A stretch of DNA of 64,000 nucleotides from a bacterium (GTDB lineage Bacteria; Patescibacteriota; Minisyncoccia; Phycocordibacterales; CALRBL01), in assembly GCA_027487075.1 (NCBI GenBank), contig JAIYEG010000010.1, positions 47,270 through 111,269 on the forward strand, in the 5' to 3' direction. The notes beneath the pieces were generated by a model. The model was not told where the DNA came from, searched no databases, and was given only the letters and a program-made list of their open reading frames with translations. This document shows positions 52,143 to 55,814 of this stretch, in pieces; positions within the stretch are counted from its first letter, which is position 1; each line of letters begins with the position of its first letter. The position numbers and the translations under genes were made by a program.

Positions 52143-53981
52143 CTAAGCCTCAACCTTGCGGAGACGGAACGCGAACTTGCGGTCCGGACGCCACCCGCCG
52201 CCGGGCCCCGCCCAAGCGCCGTCGAGCCACAAACCGTCGACGTAGCGTACGAGCTTGAAGACGTCCGGGTCGCCGTCGGAGTCGGTAATCTGCTTCATAC
52301 CGATATAGAAATACTCTCCTAAGGGTTGATTCTTGTACTTGAGGCGGTAATTCGGTCCCGTATCTGCGGGGCATAATTCCAAACCCAGTTCTTCTGCTCG
52401 TTTATAAATCTGATCGGTGGTGGCATTTGACTTGAATCCCAAATCGGCGACAGTGAGACGGATGAGGGTAGCTTGTTCCGGTTTACCGGTAACGAAGTCT
52501 GGATTTTCTATCATGCTTTTTGCATAGTCAGAAATATTGATGCCAGCCGTTTCCATTTCAGAAATAAGTTGCTCTTTTGATTTTCCTCCGATCTCAACCT
52601 CTTCCCTTCGAATCTTCTTGTCGGGAAATGAGGTGTAAACATGCTCTAAAGTTTCAGGAAGCTTTTGGAAGATGCCTGGTTCGAGCTGGCCTACATACGC
52701 TTTCGTATGCTCATTAATTTGACTCGGCACATGAGCAATCTCTTCTTTGGTACAGTCAAAGATGACGAGCATGTCTTCTTCAGTGTTTCGATCTTGACGC
52801 AACTCAGCTACTCGGGGATCTTTCTGGTAGCCGAAGCCTTCGATCGACGAATTGATCTCATACAAGAATATGAGATCGTCTTTGGTGAACGATTCCTCAT
52901 TTTCATGTTTTTTCTCAAGAGAGGTTAAGACGCGCATGTCCTCGCTCTTCTTGCGGTAGGCATCGGCCTCGGTGCCGAATTCGGAAAGCTTGCCATCAAG
53001 AGCTTCCTGCATGACAGGCTCAACTCCCTGATGCGGGAGTATGCCTCGAACTTCCCCGATCCTGTTGTCCCCGTCCATGCGGATGGCGAGGCGCGGCTGG
53101 GTCGGTTCGCCATTTGAATCGTTGGTATAGAAGACATAAAAATCACCGCTCTCAATTTGTGCCTCAGCGGTCGAAGATCCTGCCGTACACCAACCGGTGC
53201 CCTTGCCTTCGAGCGACTTGAAGAGTTTCGCTGCATCGCCAATTCTTCCTTGCTCGTACTTGACCCACTCTCCCTTGATCTCTTCGCGGTTCTCCATCGA
53301 AGCCGCGAGGGATTTCTGGATGAGTTCTGCATAGAGGGTGGGAAACTTCTTGGAAAAGGCTTCCTTAATTTCAGGCTCCTTGAGGTTCTTGTTGTCTTCC
53401 TTTACTTTAAGGTATATGTCGGCAATCTGGGCCAGAGGCTCGCGGTAGATGTCAGGAAATGGAGCGACGGTCGAGTCGGTGCGCTTCTTGAACTCGCCAC
53501 GCTCCTTGTCGAATTGCGACAACTTGATGATGTTCTTCCAGGCAAAATATTTGAACCATGCGGGATAGACGGCGTCATCCGAGGTGAGATAGTCCATCCA
53601 AGCATCAAGGGAGTGTCTTTGGTCTTCAATAGCTACATCCATCATCTGCTCGCGTATATTTGCAGGAATTTCCTCGACAGCTTGACCACGCTCACGGGCG
53701 ATGCGTTGCTGGAGCTCGAAGTAGCTTTCAGGGAAATTCTCTTTCTTAATGAGAAGCGCGTCATATATCTTGTCCCGAAACATCTCGAGATTGCGCTCCC
53801 GCACCCTCTCGTCTGGATTGAGGAAGATATTTTCTAACCTATCCATGTACGCTTCAATACGCTCGGCCGGATCATTGGGCACTTTTTCTCCTTCAAGGCG
53901 TTCCTGCTTTTCCACCGCAGCCTGCACCTCTTCGGAGGTCTGAAGCTCGGGATTTTTGATGTGGAGAGGGTGTTTTTCCAT
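52143..53981 (-). CDS. DGR target (variable) protein, with variable repeat at its C-terminus
   Basis: 612 aa. The C-terminal 43 aa (...SDGDPDVFKLVRYVDGLWLDGAWAGPGGGWRPDRKFAFRLRKVEA) are encoded by the VR. The ...FRL ending is typical of DGR C-type-lectin-fold variable regions. Confidence 0.8.
   Translation of the reverse strand: MEKHPLHIKNPELQTSEEVQAAVEKQERLEGEKVPNDPAERIEAYMDRLENIFLNPDERVRERNLEMFRDKIYDALLIKKENFPESYFELQQRIARERGQAVEEIPANIREQMMDVAIEDQRHSLDAWMDYLTSDDAVYPAWFKYFAWKNIIKLSQFDKERGEFKKRTDSTVAPFPDIYREPLAQIADIYLKVKEDNKNLKEPEIKEAFSKKFPTLYAELIQKSLAASMENREEIKGEWVKYEQGRIGDAAKLFKSLEGKGTGWCTAGSSTAEAQIESGDFYVFYTNDSNGEPTQPRLAIRMDGDNRIGEVRGILPHQGVEPVMQEALDGKLSEFGTEADAYRKKSEDMRVLTSLEKKHENEESFTKDDLIFLYEINSSIEGFGYQKDPRVAELRQDRNTEEDMLVIFDCTKEEIAHVPSQINEHTKAYVGQLEPGIFQKLPETLEHVYTSFPDKKIRREEVEIGGKSKEQLISEMETAGINISDYAKSMIENPDFVTGKPEQATLIRLTVADLGFKSNATTDQIYKRAEELGLELCPADTGPNYRLKYKNQPLGEYFYIGMKQITDSDGDPDVFKLVRYVDGLWLDGAWAGPGGGWRPDRKFAFRLRKVEA
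52158..52285 (-). repeat. DGR variable repeat (VR)
   Basis: 128 bp. 109/128 identical to the TR, and all 19 differences lie where the TR has adenine. Confidence 0.88.
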
Positions 53982-54251
53982 AGGGGCATTTTAGCAGGAA
54001 ACAGCCGTTTTTGGTATATTGATAGAAGATCGGTTGCATTGAACGGTTACGGCTTTTCAAGACCGATTCGGCTCATATGCATTGAGAGCGTGGACGGCTA
54101 CGGTTTTCCACGGAGGATGCATGTGCCAGTCCATAAAAAAGAAAATACTTGGTGCGATGCGCTTGGTGGGTCTTGCTCACAAATTATATACAGTCCGGCC
54201 TCTCATGCTTGCATGTTAGGTGGACAGTGGCATTGATGGCGCCTCGCACGA

Positions 54252-54379
54252 ACCGACTCCGACGGCAACCCGAACGTCTTCAAGCTCGAACGCAACGACG
54301 ACGGTTTGTGGCTCAACGACAATTGGGCGAAGCCCGACAACGAGTGGAATCCGGACAACAAGTTCGCGTTCCGTCTCCG
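54252..54379 (+). repeat. DGR template repeat (TR)
   Basis: Intergenic, AAC-codon-rich (NDNWAKPDNEWNPDNK). 33 adenines, 19 of which are substituted in the VR. Followed by hairpin ccgcaac-ctcagac-gttgcgg. Confidence 0.88.
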
Positions 54380-54402
54380 AAACTGCTTTCTTTTCCGCAA
54401 CC

Positions 54403-54717
54403 TCAGACGTTGCGGTTTTTCTTTTCAGGATTTTCAAGACTCTTCTTCCAGCCGCCAAACATCTTTCCGACCTCCTCAAGCTTTAGAGCGACATCCTCGC
54501 ACTGCTTGTTGGAGATGAGCTTACCTTCCCATGCGACTGATACCAGAAATTTTAGGGTGTCTAATACAAGAATACATTCACTGACCTTTTCCAGTTTCTT
54601 CTCCTTTTCAGTAAAATAGGCGGTGTATGACAATTCAAGTAGATCTAAGAAAGTGTTCTCGATTCGAGAACCAATCGTATACCTCGAACCTTTAGCAATA
54701 TGAGGAACGATATTCAC
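54403..54717 (-). CDS. avd: Avd-like four-helix-bundle accessory protein (DGR accessory variability determinant)
   Basis: IAKGSRY...FLDLLELSY...EVGKMFGGWKKSL matches the 'four helix bundle / 23S rRNA IVS protein' family (IAEG...F.RFL.IA.GS...EV.KML.GLIKKL). GTG start; the frame stays open upstream into the (GA)n tract. Confidence 0.7.
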   Translation of the reverse strand: MNIVPHIAKGSRYTIGSRIENTFLDLLELSYTAYFTEKEKKLEKVSECILVLDTLKFLVSVAWEGKLISNKQCEDVALKLEEVGKMFGGWKKSLENPEKKNRNV

Positions 54718-54765
54718 CCAGATCAGATATCCCTCTTTGACTCGATTCAGAATCGAGGCGGAATC

Positions 54766-54796
54766 GAGAGAGAGAGAGAGAGAGAGAGAGAGAGAG
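54766..54796. repeat. (GA)15 dinucleotide microsatellite between avd and the RT
   Basis: Perfect GAGAGA... run of 31 nt ending 4 nt before the RT ATG. Confidence 0.95.
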
Positions 54797-54800
54797 CGGA

Positions 54801-55814
54801 ATGCGGCCTGTTCATATCTACGATGATATCATTTCCGTCGAGAATTTGCTTAAGGCATGGCGAGAATTCCAGAAAGATAAAAGAAAACGCAAGGACGTGG
54901 AACGGTTCTCGGTTCACTTAACTGACAACATATTTGCCCTTCATAGGGAGTTAATGGACAAAACGTACCGACACGGCCCTTACAAAGCGTTCAAGATCAA
55001 TGACCCGAAGCCAAGAGATATTCATAAAGCTACGGTGCGAGATCGCTTGCTCCACCATGCGATCTATAGAATTCTTTACCCATACTTCGATCCGAAATTC
55101 ATCTTCGATTCTTTCTCATGCCGCCGTTCCAAAGGCACGCACCGAGCGATCAACCGCTTCCGTGATTATGCAAGAAAAGTTTCGCAAAATCACACTCGCA
55201 CTGTATGGGTGTTGAAGTGCGATATACGGAAATTCTTTGCCAATATCGACCATGCGATTTTAGAAGATATTTTAAGAAAGCGGATCGGCAATGAAGATGT
55301 CGTAATGCTTTTAAGCAGGGTCATCGAGAGCTTCAACACAAAAGGTAAGCTAGGCGTCGGACTTCCTTTGGGCAATCTGACCTCACAACTTTTGGTCAAT
55401 ATTTACATGAACGAATTTGACCATTTCTTGAAACGAAATTTGAAAATACAGTATTGCGTCAGATATGCCGATGATTTCGTCATCTTGCATGAAAACAAGA
55501 AATATCTGGAAAATATTCTGCCTCGGATATCAGAGTTTCTAGAGAGTAAATTGAGACTATCCTTGCATCCTGACAAAGTGTTCATGCGAACGATCGCCTC
55601 GGGAGTGGATTTTCTGGGATGGGTGCATTTTCCGCATCATCGGGTACCGAGGACATCGACCAGAAGGAGAATGTTAAAGAACCTGGCCAACAATCCGAAG
55701 GCGGGATCTCTGGCTTCGTATCAGGGGCTTTTGTCGCATGGAAATACGCACAAGCTACAAAAAGAGGTCGTTGATCGGAGCAAAACCGATCCCGCTAGGA
55801 ATAGGGGTTTATAA
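54801..55814 (+). CDS. DGR-type reverse transcriptase
   Basis: RT motifs 1-7: PKPRDIHKATVRDRLL, SFSCRRSKGTHRA, VLKCDIRKFFANIDH, LPLGNLTSQLLVNIYMNEFD (DGR hallmark LGxxxSQ), RYADDFVIL, SGVDFLGW. Confidence 0.9.
   Translation: MRPVHIYDDIISVENLLKAWREFQKDKRKRKDVERFSVHLTDNIFALHRELMDKTYRHGPYKAFKINDPKPRDIHKATVRDRLLHHAIYRILYPYFDPKFIFDSFSCRRSKGTHRAINRFRDYARKVSQNHTRTVWVLKCDIRKFFANIDHAILEDILRKRIGNEDVVMLLSRVIESFNTKGKLGVGLPLGNLTSQLLVNIYMNEFDHFLKRNLKIQYCVRYADDFVILHENKKYLENILPRISEFLESKLRLSLHPDKVFMRTIASGVDFLGWVHFPHHRVPRTSTRRRMLKNLANNPKAGSLASYQGLLSHGNTHKLQKEVVDRSKTDPARNRGL

Follow-up and report, generated by a model that had tools for sequence, protein, structure and literature searches.

DGRs with the gene order TR-(avd)-RT, in which avd is reversed, constitute architecture B3 and account for 90% of the DGRs of CPR bacteria (Wu et al. 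2018, NAR 46:11, PMC5758913), and DGR clade 2 is restricted to Patescibacteria (Roux et al. 2021, PMC8144416). The Bordetella phage system that we used for comparison is the BPP-1 DGR (mtd-avd-TR-brt), together with the cryo-EM structure of its bRT-Avd-RNA complex, 8ub7 (bioRxiv 10.1101/2023.10.23.563531). Stem-loops just downstream of the TR have been described by Handa et al. in 207 of 278 Avd-containing DGRs, CPR examples among them (bioRxiv 10.1101/2023.10.23.563531), and the target hairpins of characterised DGRs stand 4-34 bp from the VR and carry GRNA tetraloops (PMC3240598). Chromosomal targets with a C-type-lectin/FGE fold include Treponema denticola TvpA (2y3c) and Legionella LdtA, which are lipoproteins or surface proteins.

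We analysed a stretch of 64,000 nt (hereafter, the window) of contig JAIYEG010000010.1, assembly GCA_027487075.1 (positions 47,270-111,269 of the forward strand); all positions below are counted from its first letter. Very probably the locus is a CPR-type (Patescibacteria) diversity-generating retroelement carried on the chromosome, with architecture B3, TR-(avd)-RT, and an inverted target upstream, and it is probably active. A previous sequence-only reading had already proposed a complete DGR (TR, VR, Avd and a DGR-type RT), a proposal upheld by every test that could be run.

The relation between the repeats can be read directly from their alignment. The non-coding template repeat (TR; 54252-54379, plus strand) and the variable repeat (VR; 52159-52286, minus strand, target codons 566-607) align without gaps over 128 nt and differ at 19 positions, each of them an adenine in the TR (13 A>G, 3 A>T and 3 A>C), so that 19 of the 33 template adenines are changed and none of the 95 other bases (hypergeometric p = 3.7e-14). 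These figures reproduce those of the sequence-only reading, which had the pair right and the VR one base off, at 52158-52285; compared literally and ungapped, the reverse complement of that segment differs from the TR at 93 positions. The MAFFT alignment has a 1-nt offset, and the best ungapped register sets 54252 against 52286. All 19 mismatches fall on first or second codon positions in the target frame, where the TR holds 6 AAC codons (the AAC richness noted earlier) and 2 AAT codons, and 21 VR codons match A-containing TR codons. A repeat search lengthens the pair to 131 nt (52156-52286/54252-54382), with one more A-site mismatch. The VR ends in an IMH-like invariant 3' tail of 21 nt (52159-52179, minus strand; 62% GC), identical to TR positions 54359-54379, where the TR homology stops. 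No second VR was found within the 64-kb window. The adenine-specific transfer from TR to VR, the AAC-rich TR, the GC-rich invariant tail at the 3' end of both repeats, the stem-loop just 3' of the TR and the location of the VR at the 3' end of a gene for a C-type-lectin-fold protein are all shared with the BPP-1 DGR.

The protein family assignments are equally direct. The RT (54801-55814, plus strand, 337 aa) matches phrog_1423 (4.4e-106), and among solved structures it is closest to the DGR RT of the Bordetella phage (8ub7, E = 8.1e-45), well ahead of the top group II intron RT (2.7e-21). The DGR-specific LGNLTSQ motif anticipated in the sequence-only reading lies at residues 190-196 (nt 55368-55388), corresponding to the (I/L)GxLTSQ motif of bRT, and the catalytic YADD at residues 222-225 (nt 55464-55475); both are intact. 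Another feature in common with BPP-1 is the Avd partner. The avd gene predicted between TR and RT is indeed there, on the minus strand (54403-54717, 104 aa from a GTG), and matches Pfam bAvd (54.9 bits, cut-off 40) and PHROG 3206, "Avd protein of DGR" (1.2e-17); NCBIfam DivGenRetAVD scores 60.7 bits, under its equivalog cut-off of 80, and a search among solved Avd structures gave no sequence match. The gene is possibly 3 codons longer, starting at a CTG at 54726 (TTG in relatives).

The target gene (52143-53981, minus strand) encodes 612 aa, with an N-terminal module of about 410 aa, without a known family and including a GNAT-like central fold, followed by the C-type-lectin-like C-terminal domain that bears the VR. 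Moderate scores support this C-type-lectin/FGE-like fold, as had been expected, and the protein ends in ...RKFAFRLRKVEA, again as described before. It has no signal peptide and no hydrophobic segment and looks like a cytoplasmic, soluble protein, in contrast to TvpA and LdtA, from which it also differs in its large N-terminal module. The Treponema DGR further differs in its accessory gene and architecture (HRDC and C, instead of avd and B3). Unlike the phage-borne BPP-1 DGR, the one in the window is chromosomal, has avd and the target on the other strand, and its target has no phage-tail context.

Neither is there a GC hairpin 4-34 bp from the VR, the element on which efficient homing depends in the Bordetella phage. 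The hairpin that had been likened to an IMH/IMH* arrangement does exist (GCTTGC-GAA-GCAAGC, 52043-52057, minus strand) and is the nearest one, but it stands about 100 nt past the VR end, 86 nt past the stop codon, and its 3-nt loop is unlike those of characterised target hairpins. Such hairpins are found in 17 of 63 related loci (background 5%), mostly 58-98 nt from the VR, and this one could be either the terminator of the target gene or a distant analogue of the DGR target hairpin.

The architecture is conserved. All 63 related loci have the core TR(+) avd(-) RT(+), while their targets are direct-upstream in 46, inverted-upstream in 9 and inverted-downstream in 8. The two orientations that had been considered unusual are thus real but not unusual: avd runs opposite to TR and RT throughout, as in architecture B3, and the target is inverted in 17/63. 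Core gene order and strands, host group and a target without a recognisable Pfam domain are as in CPR architecture B3 and DGR clade 2; nothing essential differs, the inverted-upstream target being a minority arrangement. Since the cDNA works in trans by homology, the strand of the target relative to the TR would be irrelevant, and what probably matters is that the target be co-directional with the presumed direction of replication. GC skew of the plus strand is negative in 15 of 16 bins, and the target strand is the G-rich one in 44 of 56 loci. The target strand tracks GC skew as a clade-wide feature, although part of the correlation in short flanks may reflect coding-strand composition. In E. 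coli, editing varies with orientation relative to replication (PMC12875486). We found no description of the link between target strand and GC skew in the part of the literature accessible to us.

Upstream of the TR, a -10-like box with TG, GGTATATT (54013-54020, plus strand; predicted site 53991-54020), is conserved in the alignment of relatives and is a putative promoter of the TR RNA. The same box also lies within the divergent promoter region of the target gene. It is followed by a predicted 5' domain of seven helices (54032-54249, plus strand): 54032-35/54061-64, 54039-46/54053-60, 54075-82/54117-24, 54089-99/54102-12, the long-range helix 54152-63/54238-49, which closes 2 nt 5' of the TR, 54167-71/54175-79 and 54189-205/54214-29. 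Compensatory changes occur in 44 of its 59 pairs, and 95.7% are paired, versus 39-47% with slid partners (0 of 500 shuffles); the RNA strand is fixed by invariant G-U pairs. The profile matches 61 of the 63 loci, and an Rfam scan of 53800-54900 gave no match, which leaves the domain without an Rfam family. Within it, an A-rich strand, AAAAGAAA (54137-54144, plus strand), directly 5' of an invariant ACUUGG, is predicted to pair with the conserved TR 3' flank (54377-54394, plus strand), in which a CCGAAACU motif precedes the U-rich UUUCUUUU (54387-54394). This duplex shows compensatory motif classes across loci (cognate -5.3 versus non-cognate -3.75 kcal/mol; 0 of 5000 permutations). Next comes a terminator-like hairpin, CCGCAAC-7 nt-GUUGCGG, with UUUUUCUUUU (54395-54425, plus strand), the predicted 3' end of the RNA. 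Its stem-loop, at 54395-54415, is the different hairpin that the TR had been said to precede; it is present in all aligned relatives, with compensatory changes in 4 of 6 pairs and a nearly invariant T-run, and the final avd codons overlap it on the opposite strand. Promoter and terminator are both proposed from consensus or conservation. Covariation among loci did not locate the priming site, because the candidate segments (ACUUGG and CCGAAA) are both invariant and give no signal.

Covariation thus supports, clade-wide, an RNA domain that precedes the TR, measures about 220 nt, is clamped to the U-tract following the TR and has a terminator at its end. We found no description of the domain or of the long-range clamp in the part of the DGR literature accessible to us. 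The clamp joins sequences upstream and downstream of the TR, analogously to the "cPRT Stop" duplex of BPP-1, but its upstream strand is about 108 nt from the TR, compared with 20 nt or less in the phage. The large structured RNA of BPP-1 (Sp, 140 nt) is 3' of the TR, whereas here only about 45 nt follow the TR before the terminator.

The 83-nt spacer between avd and RT contains, by eye, a palindrome (CTCGATTC-A-GAATCGAG, 54741-54757) between the two gene starts, with a similar inverted repeat there in relatives, and a (GA)15-16 microsatellite (54766-54796, plus strand) ending 4 nt 5' of the RT start codon, the only such tract in the 64 kb. It belongs to a clade-wide hypermutable purine tract: (GA)5-21 or G8-14 stands at the RT start in 61 of 63 loci, 62 tracts fall in avd-RT spacers versus 5 in 677 kb elsewhere, and the length of the tract differs (9-13 units) among contigs sharing an identical RT gene. 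Known contingency loci of simple sequence repeats (SSR) include the (TA)n that separates the divergent hifA and hifB promoters in Haemophilus influenzae, as well as poly-G tracts of Neisseria and Campylobacter genes. As in these, a hypermutable mono- or dinucleotide tract lies between two divergent genes, at or inside a coding 5' end, and varies in length between otherwise identical sequences; unlike in promoter-spacer SSRs, the lengths (10-42 nt) are too variable for a spacer role. No SSR control of any DGR was found in the literature searched, nor, in the papers accessible to us, a hypermutable tract at a DGR RT start. The RT of the window has its own ATG after the tract and hence needs no frame switch.

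In 31 of the 61 loci, however, the RT lacks a start codon downstream of the tract, which is then inside the sole available RT frame; transcription and translation would therefore begin further upstream. Together with the failure to identify an RT promoter in the 83-nt spacer, and with the stem-loops of Handa et al., this favours an alternative that we consider rather unlikely, namely a DGR whose RNA follows the Bordetella phage model. In that case the hairpin at 54395-54415 would be an Avd-binding stem-loop instead of a terminator, with read-through antisense to avd, across the (GA)n and into the RT gene, giving a long RNA whose scaffold (the Sp equivalent) is 3' of the TR; some other role, for example in stability or in regulating the divergent target promoter, would fall to the conserved 5' domain. 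Against this, the near-invariant U-run after the hairpin is the signature of an intrinsic terminator, the sequence 3' of it is constrained as avd coding region, the covarying structure of 59 pairs is upstream of the TR and abuts it, and the covarying long-range duplex joins the 3' flank to the 5' domain and not to sequence downstream. The short RNA with a 5' domain, presumably the scaffold that binds RT and Avd, is thus the reading we prefer.

Variation in natural populations is directly seen to be confined to A-sites. Close homologues of both RT and target number in the hundreds to thousands among Paceibacteria/Parcubacteria MAGs. Among 120 homologues, variation falls almost only at TR-A codons, where the family entropy is concentrated, and TR adenines account for 95% of 1,324 mismatches in the 63 related loci. 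Two contigs of a relative that shares the inverted layout match over 5,265 nt apart from 19 substitutions in the VR, every one of them (19/19) at a TR adenine. An independent contig of the window's strain (L081) is identical to it over 2,678 nt save for one base, 52240, a TR-A site. The activity evidence from the strain itself consists of this single SNP.

That the two available assemblies of the strain differ by so little would suit an inactive relic, its TR/VR differences left by past activity and diversification now ceased in this organism, as would the truncated serine recombinase adjoining the cassette and the weak avd start codon (GTG or CTG; TTG in relatives). We consider this very improbable, since the three ORFs are all intact, with the catalytic YADD and SQ motifs present, the RNA elements are likewise intact and agree with the clade consensus, the sole SNP hits one of the 33 TR-A sites, for which the chance probability is about 1.2%, and represents a second A-to-N change at that adenine, and the close relative of the same layout is demonstrably active. 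A duplicated gene fragment or gene-conversion tract beside an unrelated RT (group II intron, retron or defence-associated), towards which the top-scoring NCBIfam RT model (group_II_RT_mat, whose 155 bits fall far short of the cut-off of 300) and many weaker-scoring DRT/UG models in PADLOC might point, is effectively refuted by the A-specific mismatch pattern, the Avd gene, a bRT-like RT of just 337 aa that is closer to bRT than to any other solved relative by 24 orders of magnitude and has no maturase or endonuclease domains, the lack of intron RNA domains in the Rfam scan of 53800-54900, and the conservation of the cassette in 63 loci.

An active DGR of this kind would work as follows. A plus-strand non-coding RNA of about 400 nt, beginning just past the conserved -10 box, would comprise the 5' domain, the TR and a short 3' tail, whose U-tract would base-pair with the A-tract of the 5' domain and leave the TR looped out between two clamps. 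The intrinsic terminator would stop the RNA and also prevent antisense transcription into avd. RT and Avd would reverse-copy the TR into cDNA, misincorporating opposite adenines, and this cDNA would take the place of the VR in the 3' end of the target gene. The exchange would recode as many as 21 codons, enough for about 7e18 different proteins, on what is presumably the ligand-binding face of the C-type-lectin-like domain of a soluble protein. The DGR itself belongs to an already known type, standard in ultra-small CPR bacteria.

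We found the plus-strand segment 54252-54379 to be nearly identical to the reverse-complemented 3′ end of the minus-strand open reading frame 52143-53981, a pair that the sequence-only reading had taken for the template repeat (TR) and variable repeat (VR) of a diversity-generating retroelement (DGR). Taken literally, the VR coordinates proposed there give 93 mismatches; alignment with MAFFT revealed an offset of one base, the best ungapped register sets 54252 opposite 52286, and the corrected VR is 52159-52286. In this register the 128-nt pair behaves as had been claimed, with 19 mismatches, all at TR adenines (13 A>G, 3 A>T, and 3 A>C): 19 of the 33 TR adenines are changed versus 0 of the 95 other bases (hypergeometric p = 3.7e-14). 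The homology extends for three further bases, which add one A-site mismatch. The VR spans codons 566-607 of the 612-aa target, the mismatches fall at codon positions 1 (9) and 2 (10), and the TR is indeed rich in AAC, with six AAC and two AAT codons in the target frame. After the last variable site, both copies share an identical 21-nt tail (62% GC) resembling the IMH/IMH* arrangement, past which they diverge (CAAGG... in the VR, AAACT... in the TR). An A-tolerant scan of both strands found no second VR in the 64-kb window.

The reverse transcriptase (RT) gene (54801-55814, plus strand) codes for a 337-aa protein with an RVT_1 match. Among solved structures, the DGR RT of a Bordetella phage, 8ub7, scores best (E 8.1e-45, against 2.7e-21 for the leading group II intron RT), with GVGLPLGNLTSQ opposite GVGIPIGSLTSQ in the alignment; the protein also matches PHROG 1423 at 4.4e-106. 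The SQ motif reported for domain 4 is present (LGNLTSQ, residues 190-196), as is the catalytic YADD (222-225). By sequence similarity, then, the enzyme would belong to the DGR lineage. The gene between TR and RT (54403-54717, minus strand, 104 aa) is of the Avd type, as had been proposed: it is recognized by Pfam bAvd (54.9 bits, cut-off 40) and by the PHROG "Avd protein of DGR" (1.2e-17), scores 60.7 bits against NCBIfam DivGenRetAVD, under the cut-off of 80, and matched none of the solved-structure sequences. A group II intron, retron, or defence RT is ruled out by the similarity to bRT, the presence of Avd, and the A-bias; the corresponding NCBIfam and PADLOC models scored far under their own cut-offs or far under the DGR-type hits. 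The earlier assignments of TR, VR, avd, and RT were correct, and the locus is a genuine, complete DGR that is probably active.

The start of avd is ambiguous (54718-54726, minus strand). The ORF tool picks a GTG at 54717, and three codons upstream the window has CTG where relatives have a TTG preceded by a GAGGG Shine-Dalgarno. Between the divergent avd and RT starts lies a perfect palindrome, CTCGATTC-A-GAATCGAG (54741-57), and relatives have a similar inverted repeat in the same spot; an operator and a 5′-UTR hairpin are possible roles.

The target (52143-53981, minus strand, 612 aa), which carries the VR at its 3′ end, matched no family in Pfam, NCBIfam, PDB sequences, PADLOC, or PHROGs. 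Since it has no hydrophobic segment (19-residue hydropathy maximum, 0.56), it lacks a signal peptide or membrane anchor and is apparently cytoplasmic. An AlphaFold model of high confidence (pLDDT 88.9) was obtained with 48 diverse homologues; the only coherent Foldseek hits of this model were C-type lectin domains (mincle, probability 0.9, E 0.04), and its predicted C-terminal order, beta-alpha-alpha-beta4, is compatible with a C-type lectin fold. Of the scored candidates, 1,900 were hits to this family, and 5,493 cluster representatives reached E <= 1e-3; the closest members, from many Patescibacteria lineages, are tightly conserved, with ~80% identity over 613 aa.

Diversification of this protein can be followed at several distances. 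Among 120 target homologues, column entropy is 0.2-0.7 bits along the protein versus 1.5 at residues 571-600, where peaks of 2-3.5 bits sit on TR-adenine codons, separated by invariant residues. A homologue encoded in an independent assembly is the same as the window protein but for V581G. Its contig, L081 (SRR30952591), has a single difference from window positions 51366-54043 in 2,678 nt, at 52240, which pairs with TR adenine 54298 (TR GAC, window GTC, L081 GGC). One A-site difference is thin evidence of activity in the window strain. Stronger evidence comes from a relative with the same inverted-upstream layout, whose RT is 76% identical to that of the window: two of its contigs from different samples (L095 and L097) are identical over 5,265 nt save for one GA-unit indel and 19 substitutions, all of them inside the VR and at TR adenines. 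Several assemblies of that relative's strain (L096, L100, and L101) end inside the target gene, so their contigs lack the VR, as expected if VR heterogeneity breaks assemblies; in metagenome data, such breaks are probably a practical sign of a heterogeneous VR.

The 80 closest genomic RT loci, scored for A-biased repeats and gene strands, all belong to Patescibacteria MAGs (named homologues include Paceibacterota, Sungbacteria, Taylorbacteria, Giovannonibacteria, and others). Counts given here refer to the 63 loci with a callable TR/VR pair, that is, 62 relatives and the window. In all 63 the arrangement is TR(+), avd(-), RT(+), the median distance from TR to avd stop is 26 nt, and 1,256 of their 1,324 mismatches (95%) are at TR adenines. 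The target is direct and upstream in 46, inverted and upstream in 9 (including the window), and inverted and downstream of RT in 8; such a fixed core with a free target position and strand is as expected for a cDNA acting in trans. One related locus (L003) has two identical TRs (2067-2201 and 5436-5570), two VRs (2-83 and 3318-3452), and a second poly-G tract at 2604, and looks like a tandemly duplicated DGR cassette.

This layout corresponds to architecture B3, TR-(avd)-RT with avd reversed (Wu et al. 2018, PMC5758913), and one DGR clade is restricted to Patescibacteria (Roux et al. 2021, PMC8144416). By association with its relatives, the window host is a member of the CPR/Patescibacteria. 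The opposite-strand avd and the inverted target had been singled out as unusual. Both orientations hold, but the layout is the CPR standard, and since these features are the hallmark of a known class, the finding as originally stated loses interest: the locus is a further example of a well-described DGR class.

The GC hairpin noted after the VR also exists (52043-57, GCTTGC-GAA-GCAAGC in the gene sense, with a 6-bp stem and a GAA loop) but lies 98 nt past the VR. Functional hairpins have stems of 7-10 bp and GRNA tetraloops and are found 4-34 bp from the VR (Guo et al., PMC3240598); they are not universal, being present in 34% of DGRs in Wu et al. 2018 (PMC5758913). Perfect GC-rich hairpins within 150 nt after the VR occur in 17 of 63 loci versus 5% of random segments, mostly 58-98 nt away and with GAA/GTA/GGA loops in 10 of the 17. 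These features would suit either a gene terminator or a more remote form of the target hairpin.

Upstream of the TR, a non-coding stretch of ~230 nt is kept wherever the target sits. The region opens with a conserved -10-like box, GGTATATT (54013-20, plus strand), followed by a structured leader (54032-54249) for which RNAalifold with 30 loci predicted seven helices; of their 59 pairs, 44 show double compensatory changes. Pair counting found 95.7% of cells paired versus 39-47% with the partners slid by 1-3 columns, the covariation score was 0.536 versus 0.10-0.14, and 0 of 500 shuffles matched any measure. Because several G-U pairs are invariant, the structured strand is the plus. Length variation comes from insertions in two hairpin loops, and the last helix (54152-63/54238-49) closes two bases before the TR. 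The distribution of the leader was obtained with a sequence profile, which matches 61 of the 63 loci; in 59 the match stops where the TR starts, and the window contains one copy. A scan of 53800-54900 against Rfam 15 at E <= 1 gave no match for the leader RNA, the sole hit being a chance one to IS009 (E 0.57). Open frames run across the leader and TR (54149-54619 and 54220-54486, plus strand), and 83-aa genes have been called in two public contigs (L096 and L097); such gene calls across leader and TR are by-products of the codon-like TR and are not to be annotated as proteins.

The 3′ flank of the TR carries, in every relative, the conserved motif CCGAAA(C/G)U and a U-rich tract, together with a hairpin whose sequence varies and an almost unchanging UUUUUCUUUU. 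The hairpin (54395-54415 in the window) shows compensatory changes in four of its six pairs and is terminator-like in a consensus scan; the final avd codons overlap it on the opposite strand. Folding of the whole transcript suggested pairing of the U-tract (54387-94) with a leader A-tract (54137-44) that lies directly 5′ of an invariant ACUUGG, and we refer to this duplex as the clamp. An anchored extraction showed matching motif classes of the two strands across 62 loci: AAAGAAAA/UUUUCUUU, AAAUGAAAA/UUUUCAUUU, AAAUGAAGA/UCUUCAUUU, AAAUAAAGA/UCUUUAUUU, AAAAAUA/UAUUUUU, and AAACA/UGUUU. At -5.3 kcal/mol versus -3.75 kcal/mol, cognate pairs are more stable than non-cognate ones, and 0 of 5,000 permutations equaled the cognate value. 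This anchored analysis was used instead of an unconstrained search for duplexes between leader and flank, which was noisy and captured the terminator stem. Inspection of the same extraction gave no covariation support for a priming duplex of ACUUGG with CCGAAA(C/G)U, since both segments are invariant.

The only DGR studied biochemically is that of Bordetella, whose functional RNA consists of 20 nt before the TR and, after it, an Sp of 140 nt. This Sp wraps around the RT, provides A56 for priming, and pairs with the upstream segment in a "Stop" duplex (Handa et al., bioRxiv 10.1101/2023.10.23.563531). The cross-taxon survey in the same work was confined to 40 nt before and 100 nt after the TR. 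Common to both systems, which are alike in DGR function, are an upstream/downstream duplex of the "cPRT Stop" kind and a stem-loop just 3′ of the TR. However, there is no Sp of ~140 nt in the window, where the distance from TR to the terminator U-run is ~45 nt and antisense avd follows; the upstream strand of the clamp is ~108 nt from the TR, whereas in Bordetella it is at most 20 nt away; and most of the structured RNA precedes the TR here and follows it there. Considering that the stem-loop and duplex are present and that the structured bulk precedes the TR, we infer a discrete, terminated ncRNA of ~400 nt, at roughly 54027-54425. Its seven-helix 5′ domain would be a scaffold for binding RT-Avd, clamped to the U-tract 3′ of the TR, and priming and termination would be organized differently from those of the Bordetella DGR. 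Neither Rfam nor the accessible DGR literature yielded a description of such a clamped 5′ scaffold.

A second regularity among the relatives is a purine repeat at the start of the RT gene. In the window, a (GA)15-16 tract (54766-54796), the only one of its kind in the 64 kb, stops 4 nt short of the RT start codon; (GA)5-21 or G8-14 is found at the RT start in 61 of the 63 loci, and the related loci have 62 purine tracts in their avd-RT spacers versus 5 in the other 677 kb. The repeat varies in length among otherwise identical sequences of one relative, the P0134 strain: nine contigs from different samples have identical RT genes (984/984 nt) and identical flanks, and their tracts are (GA)9, 9, 10, 10, 12, 12, 12, 13, and 13. 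The P0133 strain has only (GA)4, invariant in its four contigs, and the contig nearest to the window, L081, ends before the tract. A start codon lies between the tract and the conserved RT N-terminus in 30 of the 61 loci (including the window, with its own ATG). In the 31 without one, the RT frame is continuous with an upstream ATG in 14, has only TTG or GTG in 10, and has no start in 7; judged by these reading frames, the tract would lie inside the RT frame in 31 of the 61 loci. The (GA)n loci without their own RT start are spread roughly equally over the three frames (11:10:6), the distribution that a frame-switching repeat would produce. Placed at the RT start, such a tract would make hypermutation stochastically switchable or tunable, a mutator under the control of a mutable repeat. 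The accessible literature offered nothing relevant on DGRs linked to simple-sequence repeats. That both ideas apply throughout B3, i.e., that the DGR RNA is circularly rearranged relative to that of Bordetella and that the purine tract switches or tunes hypermutation, we put forward as a tentative joint reading that is rather less probable than its failure in one part or the other.

The third regularity concerns the strand of the target. Experiments with the Bordetella DGR in E. coli showed that co-directional targets are edited 8- to 44-fold better (PMC12875486). In the window, 15 of the sixteen 4-kb bins have a negative plus-strand GC skew and the genes are split evenly between strands, so the minus strand is probably the leading one and the target probably co-directional with the replication fork. 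Among the loci, the target coding strand is the G-rich strand in 44 of 56 (p = 2e-5), and direct and inverted target classes differ in skew (p = 2e-4). The pattern agrees with the E. coli orientation rule, but on flanks of at most 9 kb it is confounded by coding-strand composition. Neither the hypermutable repeat nor a target strand tracking GC skew was found in the accessible literature or Rfam.

The genes around the DGR are cellular. On the RT side there are a tRNA-Arg (CCU) at 55871-55943, 57 nt after the RT stop, a glutaredoxin, a type IV pilin-like protein, and DivIC; an apparent LepA was also seen by eye. On the target side lie a 96-aa ORF and part of a large serine recombinase, which keeps only the zinc-ribbon domain (51217-51705, plus strand), adjoining a low-GC stretch (33-38% GC, 50200-51100). 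In the relative to which L095 belongs, a 440-aa serine recombinase is intact (L095, 5085-6407) and lies three called genes downstream of the RT of that strain, and a past association with an integrative element is therefore possible; the recombinase fragment and tRNA-Arg may be its remnant. A mobile phage context is ruled out by the cellular neighbors (glutaredoxin, pilin, DivIC, LepA, and tRNAs).

As a DGR, this locus is one more of a class catalogued in thousands and alone changes little. The clade comparison yields three robust regularities, namely the 5′ scaffold with its clamp, the hypermutable repeat, and the target strand tracking GC skew, which could interest DGR specialists. The first, backed by covariation, is a handle on how the template RNA is organized in DGRs other than that of Bordetella; the second, on whether DGR activity is regulated; and the third, on whether selection acts on the orientation of the target with respect to replication, as the E. 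coli experiments would have it. The very large, unannotated target family is the preferred DGR substrate of Paceibacteria, and its function probably has a central part in the host-dependent life of these bacteria.
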